A stretch of DNA of 64,000 nucleotides from Candidatus Nomurabacteria bacterium GW2011_GWC2_42_20 (lineage in GTDB: Bacteria > Patescibacteriota > Minisyncoccia > Phycocordibacterales > UBA1550). The stretch lies in the NCBI GenBank assembly GCA_000998425.1, contig LCDG01000003.1, forward strand, positions 1,619 to 65,618, given 5' to 3'. A program made the translations under genes and the position numbers. Below are positions 57,317 to 61,802 of this stretch, piece by piece (the first letter of the stretch is position 1; each line of letters opens with the position of its first letter). The notes beneath the pieces are model-generated. The model searched no databases, had not been told where the DNA came from, and was given only the letters and a program-made list of their open reading frames with translations.

Positions 57317-59524
57317 ATGGCAACCAAACAATACAAACTCCTCATCGTAGAATCGCCGTCAAAGGCGAAGACTATTGGGAAATATCTTGGGGACGAATAT
57401 GTTGTAAAGGCGAGCGTTGGGCATATTCGCGACCTTCCAAAATCAAACAAGCAAGCTATCGATATCCCCGGGGGCTTTATTCCTTTTTACGAAATCTCAA
57501 AAGGTAAATCCGATGTGGTGCATGAGATTGACTCACTTGCAAAGAAAGCGAGCGAGGTGCTTCTTGCAACCGACCCTGACCGTGAAGGTGAGGCTATCGC
57601 ATGGCACATTGCAGAAGCATGCGGTCTAAAAAAACCAAAGCGTGTCACCTATCACGAGATCACCAAGAGTGCCATAGAGGAAGCCATCGCGCATCCACGC
57701 GAGATTGATGCCAACCTTGTGAAAGCGCAGGAGGCGCGACGCGTTCTAGACAGACTCGTGGGATACGACCTCTCGGGTCTCATTTGGAAAAAAGTTCGCT
57801 ACGGTCTCTCGGCAGGGCGCGTGCAATCCCCCGCTCTCCGCATTATCATGGAGCGCGAGCGTGAAATCCGTGCCTTTATTCCAGAGGCGTATTGGACCCT
57901 CACAGCAAAAGTAAAAACAATGAAAGGCGCCGAGCTTGAGCTTTCATGCACAGAGGAACCCAGTGATGAATCAATCGTAAAAAATATCCTAAAAATAGGT
58001 CGCGCAAATCAGTGGGTTGTGCGTGAGGTAAAAGAAAGCGAGGTGGGCCGTTCACCAAAGGCACCATTCATTACTTCTACACTTCAGCAGGCTGGTTCTT
58101 CACGCTTTGGATTTGCACCGTCACGCACTATGGGTATCGCGCAAAAGCTTTACGAAAAAGGTTTCATTACCTACATGCGTACCGACAGCACAACTCTCTC
58201 TAAAGACGCAACCACCGCGATACTTGCAGAAATTACGAAACGCTATGGCGCACAGTCAGCTGAGGCACGCGTGTATAAAACCAAGAGCAAAAATGCCCAA
58301 GAAGCGCACGAGGCTATACGCCCTACCGACGTGAGTAAGGACAACCTCGGCATCAATCCCGAAGAACAAAAGCTTTACCGTCTCATTTGGGCGCGAACCA
58401 TTGCATCACAAATGGTGGACGCGAAGCTTGCAAGAACAACAATACTCGCTAATGTGCGAGATTTCAGCGTGCCAAACTTTTCTGTCACTGGTTCGCGTGT
58501 CATCACACAAGGATGGCTTGCCGCAGATCCTGACTCTCGTAGTGAGGATGTCGAACTTCCAAAAGTTGCTGAAGGTGAGTCGCTCATTCTACTTTCTCTC
58601 GATGATGAGGCAAAATTTACCGAGCCACCAGGACGCTACTCTGAAGCAGGTCTCGTGAAGGAGCTTGAAAAGCGCGACATCGGTCGTCCTTCTACGTATG
58701 CGTCTATTATTAAAACGATTCAGGATCGTGGCTATGTCATTAAAGATGGTAAAGCACTCAAGCCGACAGACACGGGGGACGTCGTGAGCTCATTCCTCGA
58801 GGAACATTTTGCAAACTATATTTCAGACACCTTCACATCAGAGATGGAGAACAAGCTCGACGATATAGCAAACGGCGAGCGCGAGTATGTAAAAACACTC
58901 AAGGATTTTTATGGTCCATTTTCCAAAGACCTCAAGGCAAAAGACAAGTTAGATAAACAGACGACTCTCGGCGACGCAGACCCACAACACAAATGTCCAA
59001 AATGCAACAGCCCGATGATAATCAAGCTCGCGCGTACGGGGAAGTTTCTCTCGTGTAAAAAATATCCTGACTGCGACGGCGCGCGCATGATAGACGGCAC
59101 CGAGCTTGCCGGCCCGCGCGATACTGGAGAGCTTTGTCCAAAATGTGGAAAATCAAACCTATTTGAACGTGATGGGCGATTTGGAAGATTCATTGCCTGC
59201 GGCAATTATCCAAAATGTAAACATATTAAAAAAGACGAGACTGCCGCGCTCCTCAACCACACGGGTGTCCCCTGCCCAATGTGTAAAAAGGGTTTTATGA
59301 CAGAGCGCAAGGGTCGCTTTGGAATTTTTTATAGTTGTACTGGCTACCCAGACTGCAAAAATGCAATCAAAGCAAGGCCGACAGGCAGAATTTGTGAGTA
59401 TCCAAAAATTGACGGCACCCCTTGCGACTCACTCATGATGGAAGGCACGAAGACAATTCCAGAACGCTGTTCAAATAAATTGTGCCCAAACCATAATCCA
59501 CATAAACTAGAGAAGGTGAGCTAG
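57317..59524 (+). CDS. topA: DNA topoisomerase I
   Basis: IVESPSKAKTI, ATDPDREGEAI, SAGRVQS, ITYMRTDS, AQEAHEAIRPT, C-terminal Zn ribbons. Confidence 0.97.
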   Translation: MATKQYKLLIVESPSKAKTIGKYLGDEYVVKASVGHIRDLPKSNKQAIDIPGGFIPFYEISKGKSDVVHEIDSLAKKASEVLLATDPDREGEAIAWHIAEACGLKKPKRVTYHEITKSAIEEAIAHPREIDANLVKAQEARRVLDRLVGYDLSGLIWKKVRYGLSAGRVQSPALRIIMEREREIRAFIPEAYWTLTAKVKTMKGAELELSCTEEPSDESIVKNILKIGRANQWVVREVKESEVGRSPKAPFITSTLQQAGSSRFGFAPSRTMGIAQKLYEKGFITYMRTDSTTLSKDATTAILAEITKRYGAQSAEARVYKTKSKNAQEAHEAIRPTDVSKDNLGINPEEQKLYRLIWARTIASQMVDAKLARTTILANVRDFSVPNFSVTGSRVITQGWLAADPDSRSEDVELPKVAEGESLILLSLDDEAKFTEPPGRYSEAGLVKELEKRDIGRPSTYASIIKTIQDRGYVIKDGKALKPTDTGDVVSSFLEEHFANYISDTFTSEMENKLDDIANGEREYVKTLKDFYGPFSKDLKAKDKLDKQTTLGDADPQHKCPKCNSPMIIKLARTGKFLSCKKYPDCDGARMIDGTELAGPRDTGELCPKCGKSNLFERDGRFGRFIACGNYPKCKHIKKDETAALLNHTGVPCPMCKKGFMTERKGRFGIFYSCTGYPDCKNAIKARPTGRICEYPKIDGTPCDSLMMEGTKTIPERCSNKLCPNHNPHKLEKVS

Positions 59525-59661
59525 GAAGCATGCTTTGCGTGCGCAAATCGTCTTCGTGGGGCGGAGCTATATCGAGTGAAGCGAGATAATGAGCCGGGGT
59601 CGAGAGTACTTAGTCCGCGCAGTGTGTACACACACGAGCAGACTTAGTAACTCGTAACCAG
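59525..59661. other. Structured non-coding insert between topA and a duplicate of its 3' end
   Basis: Several palindromes plus a long imperfect hairpin (59598-59659); no ORF. Confidence 0.55.
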
Positions 59662-59662
59662 G

Positions 59663-59734
59663 ACAATACCCGAACGTTGCTCAAATAAACTTTGTCCCAA
59701 CCATAACCCGCACAAACTAGAGAAAATTAAGTAG
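59663..59734 (+). pseudogene. Orphan copy 2 of topA 3' end
   Basis: Encodes TIPERCSNKLCPNHNPHKLEKIK*; in-frame stop at 59648, no start codon. Confidence 0.9.
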
Positions 59735-59797
59735 ATTGACACATAAATAGAGAAAAGGTAGTCTTCAAAGAGACACATTCACATAGAGGAGATTGTA

Positions 59798-60094
59798 ATG
59801 ATTGAAACACTAGGAGTAATTATTCTGTTTGTATTTATTTACTACATTCTTCCCACTATAATTATATGTGGAGGATATTTGTTGTATAAAATCTGGTCAG
59901 CAAATCCGTATGAAGTCGAGAAGGTTCAGCAAATGAAACACACAGTAAAGCTTGCAAATGCAGGTAATCAAAATGCCATTCTTGCATGCGAAGAAGACTA
60001 TCAAATTAGAAAAAGCATACGCTATGTTGACGGGCAGATCATTGCTCACTACTCAGTCCCATCTTGGATGACTTTGCGTGCCTTCGGTTTCTAA
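59798..60094 (+). CDS. Small membrane protein, paralogue A
   Basis: TTGACA-17-TAGTCT (59736-59764), GAGGAG SD, N-term TM, terminator 60106-60135. Confidence 0.8.
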   Translation: MIETLGVIILFVFIYYILPTIIICGGYLLYKIWSANPYEVEKVQQMKHTVKLANAGNQNAILACEEDYQIRKSIRYVDGQIIAHYSVPSWMTLRAFGF

Positions 60095-60191
60095 GCGACA
60101 CCTTCGTCCCCATTTGCTCAAGCGCAGATGGGGACATTTTAAATTATAAAAACAAAAGGGATGGCTTCATCATTGCGTATGCGCAAAAAAA

Positions 60192-60263
60192 ACAATCCAC
60201 GAGAGGTGTAGTAATAAACTTTGCCCAAACCATAATCCACATAAACTCAATAAACCTGAATAA
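60192..60263 (+). pseudogene. Orphan copy 3 of topA 3' end
   Basis: Encodes TIHERCSNKLCPNHNPHKLNKPE*; in-frame stop at 60147, no in-frame start. Confidence 0.9.
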
Positions 60264-60319
60264 TTGACACTTATGGGCGATAAGTATAGTCTTTGATCTA
60301 GACACTATTTAAGGAGGTT

Positions 60320-60586
60320 GTGATGATTGAAAAAATAAGTTTTTCACTGATTGGGCTCTTTGTTCTTCTGATGATTTGGCCGTGGCTCATGGAGCTGATT
60401 TTGTATGACAAGACGACACGTCAAACGCGTCAACGTCTACAACTTCTCATAAAACGAGCAAACAACGGCAATGACGCAGCTCGAAGGGCGTGCGACAGAA
60501 ATGGTCTCATCAACAAAGGAATGGTTCTTTGCGAGGATGGGATAAACGTGAAGAGTGTCTATTCCCTTCCGCATAGATGGCAATGA
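60320..60586 (+). CDS. Small membrane protein, paralogue B
   Basis: TTGACA-17-TAGTCT (60264-60292), AAGGAGG SD; shares MIE, K.AN.GN..A..AC, DG, YS.P motifs with paralogue A. Confidence 0.8.
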   Translation: MMIEKISFSLIGLFVLLMIWPWLMELILYDKTTRQTRQRLQLLIKRANNGNDAARRACDRNGLINKGMVLCEDGINVKSVYSLPHRWQ

Positions 60587-60634
60587 CTCCATCGCTACTT
60601 CAAAACTGCATGACCATTTCAGGTCGTGCAGTTT

Positions 60635-61802
60635 TCATTTGTATTTCTCCATCATATCCCATATCGCACCAGCGACGTTACGTGGCTTGCCTTCAAATGG
60701 CAGATGGTGGTTATCGAAAAACGGCATGCTGTTGCACTCGATAATTCCACATCGCTTCTCCTTTCTCCACGAGTGGCTGATATCATTGATTATAAAATCA
60801 ATACCGACGATAGGCGCCTTCAAAACATCGGCAACTTGCTCAAAAAGCTCGACATTGTCAGGGTGCACCAAATCAGAGACATCGGCAGTCGTGCCACCCA
60901 CACTCCAATTCACTTTTTGATGAAATGTCACGCGCTTCCTCATTTATAGCACTATCATCAATTTTTATTTTTGAAAAATATGGGCCAGTGCGTGCTGGGT
61001 GTTTGTTGGCCTCATCCACAAGCTCTTGAATGGTACTCACCCCATCTCCTATCACATATGGCTGGTTCCGACGAAGCGTTGCTACAAGTTTTCCATCGAC
61101 CACAGTGGCTCGATATACTGCGCCAACAAGTTCCTCTTCTACAATTACCGATGGCGATATTTTTGTCGCTATAAAAAATGCGCGCACGAGCTCATTTTCA
61201 TCAGTAATATGAAGAGTCGTATGCCTAGAACCAGACCCATGGCGGGGCTTCACAATAACTGGCGTTTCAAGATTCTTAAAAACCTGCATCGCTCCTCTTT
61301 TTGTAATCACAGAGGATCCTTTTGCGACAGGAAATCCATATTTAATAAAATGTTTTTTGAGAGCATCTTTATCATCAATCCATTTCACCTGATGCTTTAT
61401 CTTCTGAGGTAGTGGTATCCCTTCATAAGTTATACGTTTACCATTTGGGAACTCCGCGATATAAATGTTTCTTGGTAGCCCAAAAAGTCTAAACTCCCAA
61501 ACATTTAAACCCCTCTTGTTGGCCTCCTTCCAAAGCATTCCTGCAAGTATTGAAACATCGCTATCTACTTCAATTTGTTTTTTTGCTAGGCCGGTTTGCA
61601 AGCACGCTCGAATGAAATGTGGAGTAACTAGATGCTCATATGAATGAATCTGAAAAAATAACCAATTCATTAAACTCCAGCGAGTGAAAAGTAGGTTAAA
61701 AACAGAGCTGATGATAATATCAGCATACACAATCCGGTGAAAGATTGCGTTGTTGCTCCCGCACTCCCTGCATTCCATTGGTTTTGGTAATTTAAATACC
61801 AT
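60635..61802 (-). pseudogene. Frameshifted ATP-grasp protein (cyanophycin synthetase/GshF C-terminal-like)
   Basis: PVIVKP..GS, IVEE, P.VIGDG.STI.EL in one frame; N.SVGGT..DV...VHPDN, GIDFI..DI, IECNSMP in another; junction near 60940. Confidence 0.75.

Follow-up and report, generated by a model that had tools for sequence, protein, structure and literature searches.

The 3' end of the essential gene topA in the window, as we call the whole 64,000-nucleotide stretch analysed here (contig LCDG01000003.1 of the groundwater bacterium Candidatus Nomurabacteria bacterium GW2011_GWC2_42_20, from a 679-kb assembly that is 92.6% complete), is occupied by an element of 211 nucleotides (nt). It belongs to a gene-free hairpin repeat family of Patescibacteria whose copies sit after a fixed C near gene ends, with a working version of the end on one side and a displaced one on the other. 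The element is very probably a mobile one that displaces the ends of host genes; here the last 24–25 codons of topA fall within it, and two displaced ends lie downstream as orphan copies. We consider it likely that it inserts as single-stranded DNA, that the site is set by pairing between the target and a complementary segment, X', and that the enzyme acts in trans. This reading is based on the anatomy of the element, its fixed junction, its covarying helices, the match of X' to the target, relatives with an empty site and a shorter allele of the array. The features concerned are the following (aa, amino acids):

57317..59524, + strand: topA, type IA topoisomerase of 735 aa (Pfam Toprim, Topoisom_bac, Zn_ribbon_Top1)
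59446..59454, + strand: target core X, which spans the left junction and pairs with X'; relatives have the same junction
59449..59659, + strand: the element, 211 nt, consisting of replacement topA end, small hairpin, X', P2 and P3
59449..59524, + strand: copy 1, the live, element-borne topA end, closest to the element-bearing end of relative G018
59528..59542, + strand: small hairpin S, after the stop codon, with column covariation visible in the alignment
59550..59558, + strand: X', 9 nt, a candidate guide that is the reverse complement of positions -3 to +6 at the live site
59560..59595, + strand: hairpin P2, with a conserved GGA/GA internal loop
59598..59659, + strand: hairpin P3, with a conserved base and a bulged A
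59660..59734, + strand: copy 2, the displaced end B, lacking a base where it meets the element
60189..60263, + strand: copy 3, displaced end C, the oldest; relative G011 uses such an end, tail and promoter live

The limits of the element were set by alignment with nine relatives and 37 other topA-site copies. Its order is stop codon, small hairpin, X', P2, GG, P3 ending in GACC and then the orphan, which resumes immediately after GACC at all sites. The three topA-end copies begin at 59453, 59663 and 60192, as an earlier note on this DNA had claimed. The note also gave the orphans a shared start point, an ACA codon; the true junction is 4 nt upstream of that codon. The cut at the topA target would fall within the Thr codon of G-T-K, directly behind the C at 59448, and one base is missing from copy 2 at the junction. 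The protein conservation described in that note stands: the 12 differences in 63 nt of copy 2 cause no amino-acid change, those of copy 3 (12 in 57 nt) a single one (Pro>His), the tails end in KVS, KIK and KPE before the stop, and the orphans lack an in-frame start. About 20% of sites are silent, and none of 200,000 random sets of 12 substitutions was entirely silent (approximate P 4e-9). Copy 1 differs from the live end of G018 at 6 of 57 nt, and both run on into the same downstream hairpin; judging from the motif, the last of the zinc-ribbon-like ones, it would contribute that motif's second Cys pair.

The structure of the element is well conserved. In 38 aligned copies, 98.1% of the cells of four helices are paired (30–43% in slid controls), with 101 double changes against 24 after shuffling, a figure inflated by the relatedness of the sequences. 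The bulged A of P3 is present in 185 of 188 stems, and the right end of the window's own element is one base off the family consensus. The fold of the whole segment is only weakly unusual (z -1.25 as DNA, -2.14 as RNA), and the family matched nothing in Rfam, including its introns, ribozymes and RF00391.

The earlier note proposed comparing related topA loci. A protein search of 40 genomes gave 29 relatives' loci, a set not chosen by the element pattern, and nine of them have the same junction, an orphan about 200–240 nt behind the live end and alignable spacers. The P2–P3 core pattern matches 35 of the 40 relatives (the backward control gave 2 matches), and in the genome studied here the core also occurs behind tRNA-Val, tRNA-Lys (twice) and tRNA-Arg and after a tmRNA island. 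In GTDB, 82 loci, mostly from Patescibacteria, match a pattern of element end plus orphan; the units at the 80 of them in which both copies are present measure 159–339 nt (median 203) and contain no gene. Scanning of metagenomes yielded 120 loci and 89 units; the latter measure 152–305 nt, none exceeding 339 nt. These two sets overlap each other and the relatives, their search pattern fixes the junction and the first seven codons, and for one GTDB locus (L153) the reference copy was chosen by hand. A strict pattern found matches in only 11 of 301 genomes drawn phylum-wide, so the range of the element outside the class is poorly measured. The recurrent mobile unit is thus a gene-free hairpin element of about 200 nt and not the gene-carrying cassette that the note had supposed for every unit; the note's overall reading holds as regards the replacement of ends at a fixed site and is not supported as regards the cassettes.

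Variants of the element were also observed. In three longer forms (L099, L147, L035) P2 and P3 are separated by two additional helices, one of them a hairpin with a GTA triloop; these forms may stand closer to a parent element; L147 and L035 had no match in Rfam. In L111, L214, L251 and L234 elements are apparently nested within one another at the GG between P2 and P3. Downstream of topA in L005 (290–840) lies a truncated second element of the window's subtype. Behind it comes a small nuclease-like gene, by eye of the GIY-YIG type, which has repeats of another type at its sides.

The commonest targets of the element are the ends of tRNA and tmRNA genes. From the relatives we collected 104 distinct copies outside topA and located P2 in 98 of them; X' matches the upstream target with at most one mismatch in 74 of the 98. 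These 74 targets, which were assigned by context and in some cases confirmed by ARAGORN or Rfam, are 56 tRNA T-loops, 15 acceptor ends and 3 unclear cases. The pairing rule, which is the same at all sites, is that X' covers the last three bases up to a junction preceded by C and some six or more of those beyond it. At topA sites X' could be located through an independent motif in 70 of 80 GTDB loci and 79 of 89 metagenomic ones. At -3, a Gly wobble position upstream of the junction, X' corresponds to the live base in 70/70 and 77/79 cases, respectively; shuffling of the GTDB set gave a mean of 34.8 and a maximum of 48. Where live and orphan copies differ, X' follows the live one, at +1 in 22/22 GTDB and 35/39 metagenomic cases and at +4 in 23/25 and 31/32. 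No pairing of X' was found at -4 to -7 of the topA-site copies. The scored element-bearing topA sites never have A at -3 (0/70 and 0/79); A nevertheless occurs there in 3 of 30 loci of the GTDB-set analysis, and one unscored locus, L331, combines A at -3 with a mismatched X'. The topA site resembles a tRNA acceptor-end site in sequence, and such a site is a plausible origin of the topA target.

Other insertion sites deserve mention. In L274, near 340–480, an element stands behind rplL together with a displaced copy of the last rplL codons, and rplL is probably a second protein-gene target. Serine-recombinase islands lie at the 3' end of tmRNA in L032 (1023–8600, G000 C7), L276 and L277, and such islands separate tmRNA from tmRNA-matched elements in three genomes. 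In L069 (2880–3420), an IMG/VR contig, tandem elements are found at the edge of a prophage-like region. Orphans at tRNA sites, for example in L051, L054, L062 and L066, often have starts altered so that they can fold back on the P3 strand, which suggests template-switch damage that would lock the copies in.

Comparison of element-free and element-bearing relatives indicates which copy is the host's. In four pairs (G008/G014, G009/G018, G023/G016 and G341/G342) the live end and flank of the element-free genome correspond to the orphan of the other, and in a fifth the live end, tail and promoter of G011 match copy 3. The ends and downstream flanks of element-free relatives thus match orphans, which bears out the note's proposal that the orphans are former translated ends, and these empty-site relatives likewise uphold insertion at one fixed site with a replacement C-terminus. 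Locus L114 resembles the window at 0.80 in the element and 0.91 in the live end, and at 0.39–0.78 in the upstream sequence. Between live and orphan copies, codons 8–19 of 76 pairs, which the search pattern leaves free, show 359 silent, 107 changing and no stop differences; this count omits four orphans, three interrupted or frameshifted and one truncated. The metagenomic pairs, from which no such orphans were omitted, show 349 silent and 165 changing differences and 3 stops. In 29 of the 76 pairs the copies differ at no more than 10 nt in 58, often sharing a long identical run from the junction, and in the other 47 at 12–24 nt, as much as unrelated genomes do. In L003 and L008 a different insert, about 110–155 nt long, breaks the orphan just behind its Ser-Asn codons, and the right end of this insert is common to both genomes.

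The array is real, and natural populations at this locus probably hold both the array and a collapsed allele. A 12-kb contig of run X2, possibly a source of this DNA itself, contains 59380–60340 without differences, in X5 the region 59593–60900 is in one piece at flat depth, and short contigs of two other studies (X10, X11) cross several junctions with 0–4 differences. Copies 1 and 3 share 26 identical bases (59483–59508 = 60222–60247). In X8 and X9, which represent one sample, the flanks have a depth of about 37, the insert between the repeats 3.9–4.7 and a bridging contig 32.8; this contig of 34 nt fits both repeat places and occurs in X6, X8 and X9, with a depth of 7 in X6 against 7.2 for the insert. 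We infer that an allele shorter by 739 bp, with the start of copy 1 and the tail of copy 3, coexists with the array in two samples; depth is a rough measure, and the evidence covers all but four bases of the join. The dominant contigs of X8 carry differences from the window at six positions. The short allele is likelier a collapse than the ancestral state, because the start of copy 1 is of element type. The orphan of G018 is a hybrid, with its first 48 nt of element type and a native tail, which fits collapse followed by re-insertion.

The remaining features of the array, downstream of copy 2, are these:

59736..59764, + strand: promoter-like TTGACA-17-TAGTCT, read from the sequence
59798..60094, + strand: predicted membrane protein of 98 aa, paralogue 1 of a genus-level family
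60106..60135, + strand: terminator-like hairpin
60140..60188, + strand: junction before copy 3, with no element-like sequence
60222..60247, + strand: 26-nt stretch identical to 59483–59508, the join point of the 739-bp shorter allele
60264..60292, + strand: promoter-like TTGACA-17-TAGTCT, near-identical in G011
60323..60586, + strand: predicted membrane protein of 87 aa, paralogue 2

The note located the promoter-like boxes, the ribosome-binding sites and the small genes correctly; both boxes recur in relatives with variable spacers, and the one at 59736–59764 is absent from the listing of a consensus promoter scan. The small genes had been taken for cargo, one behind each copy. The live end is followed by the non-coding element instead, and the two proteins are paralogues (34% identity over 47 aa) of a family that the genus has in its topA–relA interval, sometimes hundreds of bases from any topA end; we therefore regard the genes as resident neighbours. 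Paralogue 1 has homologues in 7 of 27 other genomes of the genus, and searches of Pfam, of the Atlas (at >=0.9) and, by pattern scan, of metagenomes gave none; paralogue 2 is 74% identical to a gene of G021 and has six homologues, none of them named. The junction before copy 3 is not element-like, as 187 of 300 shuffled sequences reached its score when compared with the element set, and a decayed element at this place is not supported. Unit B (displaced end, promoter, paralogue and terminator) would therefore have either come in some other way or shed its element; it may have arrived by transformation, dprA being nearby. A similar arrangement was seen in L153, where a different live topA end lies upstream of the element-bearing copy with an element-free junction. 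Further along the window (60635–61802, - strand) an ATP-grasp-like gene is broken into two frames of 309 and 102 aa; its C-terminal part is a single frame of 225 aa in G007.

The history of the locus could be as follows. In the native state end C would have stood with its gene; unit B would then have arrived by a route that leaves no element, and element A last. Later recombination between the repeated ends would pop arrays out and leave hybrid ends, which would be perfect targets for re-insertion; such a cycle would return orphan tails to use and yield near-identical pairs. This turnover would explain why orphans are conserved as protein and why some are nearly identical to the live copy. As to the chemistry, a circle joining the end of P3 to the start of the replacement might, like that of IS608, open when a strand is transferred to the target C. 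On this single-strand guide mechanism, which we propose by analogy, our judgement is almost evenly divided and leans slightly to doubt. The element of the window itself looks immobile, since its right end is off consensus and copy 2 lacks one base; for the latter reason exact excision here would frameshift topA. More tentative still is the wider idea of a naturally programmable insertion, in which a small folded scaffold would be re-aimed at any essential gene end by swapping a guide of about 9 nt and the matching replacement tail, would owe its movement to a single-strand recombinase yet to be discovered or to an enzyme of the host, and would continually exchange TopA C-termini and tRNA 3' arms between lineages of ultra-small bacteria.

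Several observations weigh against the reading that we prefer. The agreement at -3 could also stem from hairpin-templated correction after insertion. Contrary to a simple carried-tail model, the nearest live end of an orphan is its own in 26 of 76 pairs, so the replacement is often host-like, and the similarity of elements only weakly predicts that of live ends (rho 0.11) or of orphans (0.12). The junction of unit B between copies 2 and 3 has no element, and the contigs of seven runs, in which rare forms are dropped, contained no circle junction or exact excision. The search for an enzyme points the same way. In keeping with the earlier note, a Pfam search of the neighbouring genes found no recombinase adjoining the array, and no recombinase or nuclease gene recurs beside the elements. 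Around Y1, XerC/D-like and GIY-YIG genes, 35 loci contained no element; Y1_Tnp was not found in six element-bearing genomes; and the two Y1 genes of the present genome carry their own, different palindromes. The latter, in L180 and L181 (G000 C9 and C5), are RAYT-like, and each lies between its own short palindromes.

Other candidates fared no better. Reverse transcriptase (RT) turned up in no more than 11 of the 40 relatives. A search of the present genome, 92.6% complete, found neither RT nor the DEDD recombinase (PF02371) of the IS110/bridge RNA systems. None of Y1/RAYT, RT, IS110, GIY-YIG and a single XerC/D-like gene showed a link to the element, although a Y1 enzyme might still act in trans. 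TopA prefers C at -4, which would put its cut at +3/+4, a poor fit with an X' that follows the live base at +1, and TopA was rejected as the enzyme. Integration of a circle by homologous crossover inside the duplicated end was rejected as well, because X' would then follow the orphan, yet it follows the live copy. An autonomous copy was sought in ten extended regions, among the long units and in the metagenome scan, and none was found. In viral contigs a search for the topA C-terminus gave one chance match, and of 28 loci with the core pattern only L069 is a real element.

Four other explanations have to be weighed against a mobile element that brings its own gene end. Repair or template-switch copying would have made the second end and X' from the host site at insertion, with differences accruing later. 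It would account for the almost perfect equality of X' and the host base at -3 and for the 29 pairs with few differences, often with a long identical run from the junction. We nevertheless think it unlikely: the other 47 pairs differ like unrelated genomes, the differences are mostly silent where the decay of a dead copy would look otherwise, L114 and the window share live end and element and not the upstream sequence, and the short allele offers another route to near-identical pairs. Less plausible by far is an assembly chimera of strains or a tandem duplication with neutral decay. The population is truly mixed at the locus in two samples; against this stand the X2 contig that spans the array, the X5 piece of flat depth, the pieces from other studies across the junctions and, as regards decay, the silent-only divergence of copy 2. 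The recurrence of the architecture in dozens of genomes makes either possibility very improbable indeed.

The elements might also be scars of integrase islands, in which only the attL/attR arms persisted when an island with a tyrosine or serine recombinase was lost, or else mini-islands mobilised by such an integrase. T-loop and 3'-end sites are known integrase sublocations, and elements flank serine-recombinase islands at tmRNA in three genomes. Gene-end replacement is, moreover, standard for islands in tRNA genes and icd (PMC10111431). This explanation is quite improbable in view of the single conserved core that serves many tRNAs, tmRNA and topA, the uniform size and the lack of any integrase remnant; both junctions have only a single C in common instead of an overlap of about 7 bp, and 28 of 80 pairs differ at +1. 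At tmRNA the islands were apparently inserted between the gene and a pre-existing element, and island-free tmRNA copies exist. Slightly less probable still is an RNA route, in which the element would be excised from transcripts like an intron and would propagate through reverse splicing and reverse transcription. The structure on the sense strand, a near-constant G.T/U pair, the bulged A near the 3' end and the resemblance of X' to an internal guide would suit it. However, X' follows the first copy instead of the presumptive 3' exon, the starts of orphans frequently show damage, exact removal would here put topA out of frame, and neither an intron or ribozyme match in Rfam nor a consistent presence of RT was found. 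We thus continue to favour the mobile single-stranded element.

Among known systems, the islands in tRNA and tmRNA genes and the prophages in E. coli icd resemble the element in outcome: like it, they insert in the 3' part of a conserved gene and restore it with a copy of their own, leave the old end downstream and accrete in tandem; the core of such integrase islands is about 7 bp (PMC10111431). The element differs in having neither integrase nor cargo, a length of about 200 nt, a shared core of 1 nt and a single scaffold retargeted through a complementary segment; no integrase gene lies inside or beside the unit, and the 80 and 89 units measured have no room for one. Another comparison is with the single-strand transposons IS200/IS605, whose TnpA is a Y1 HUH enzyme. 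These also have subterminal hairpins with unpaired bases and insert 3' of a short target, and IS608 reads its target by base-pairing with element DNA and can be reprogrammed (PMC5934647, PMC6006769). The element lacks tnpA and tnpB, its guide is an inverted copy of at least 9 nt spanning the junction whereas that of IS608 is a tetranucleotide at the foot of a hairpin, and it brings a replacement gene end, which IS608 does not.

REP/REPIN sequences with their RAYT are short, multicopy, non-autonomous, hairpin-rich and extragenic, as is the element; here, however, the elements were not found around RAYT genes, and every copy matches one particular gene end, of which it creates a duplicate. The rtT repeats of E. 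coli tyrT (Rfam RF00391) are structured and each ends in a copy of the tRNA 3' end. To our knowledge, no mobility mechanism has been described for rtT, and the element has no match to RF00391. Insertions with long target duplication have repeats of >30 bp, no mobility gene in the insert and occur mostly in naturally competent species; the inserts are restriction-modification genes, and the repeats are near-identical and variable in position (PMC2853133). The element has a fixed junction, copies that have often diverged silently, and an inverted guide. This type of insertion may describe unit B. We found no published description of the element family in the literature searched, which was mainly open-access and without supplements, nor in the accessible part of bioRxiv 10.64898/2026.10.21.760802.

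The element thus lacks features that define integrase islands, long-duplication inserts, IS200/IS605, REP/RAYT, introns and rtT. The earlier note overlooked the element, the segment of it that is complementary to the target, the tRNA sites and the short allele that coexists with the array. The element illustrates that tiny selfish DNA can persist in streamlined genomes by entering essential genes and supplying a functional substitute for the end. That X' matches its target exactly, in tRNAs as well as in a protein gene, suggests insertion directed by base-pairing, for which no enzyme is known; if true, this would mean that a novel recombination chemistry exists or that a known one is put to novel use, and it might provide a programmable tool. 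TopA is the cleanest test bed, since silent codon positions show the origin of each copy; the topA locus offers codon-level assignment of donor and host copies, covariation at -3 and a population with both states.

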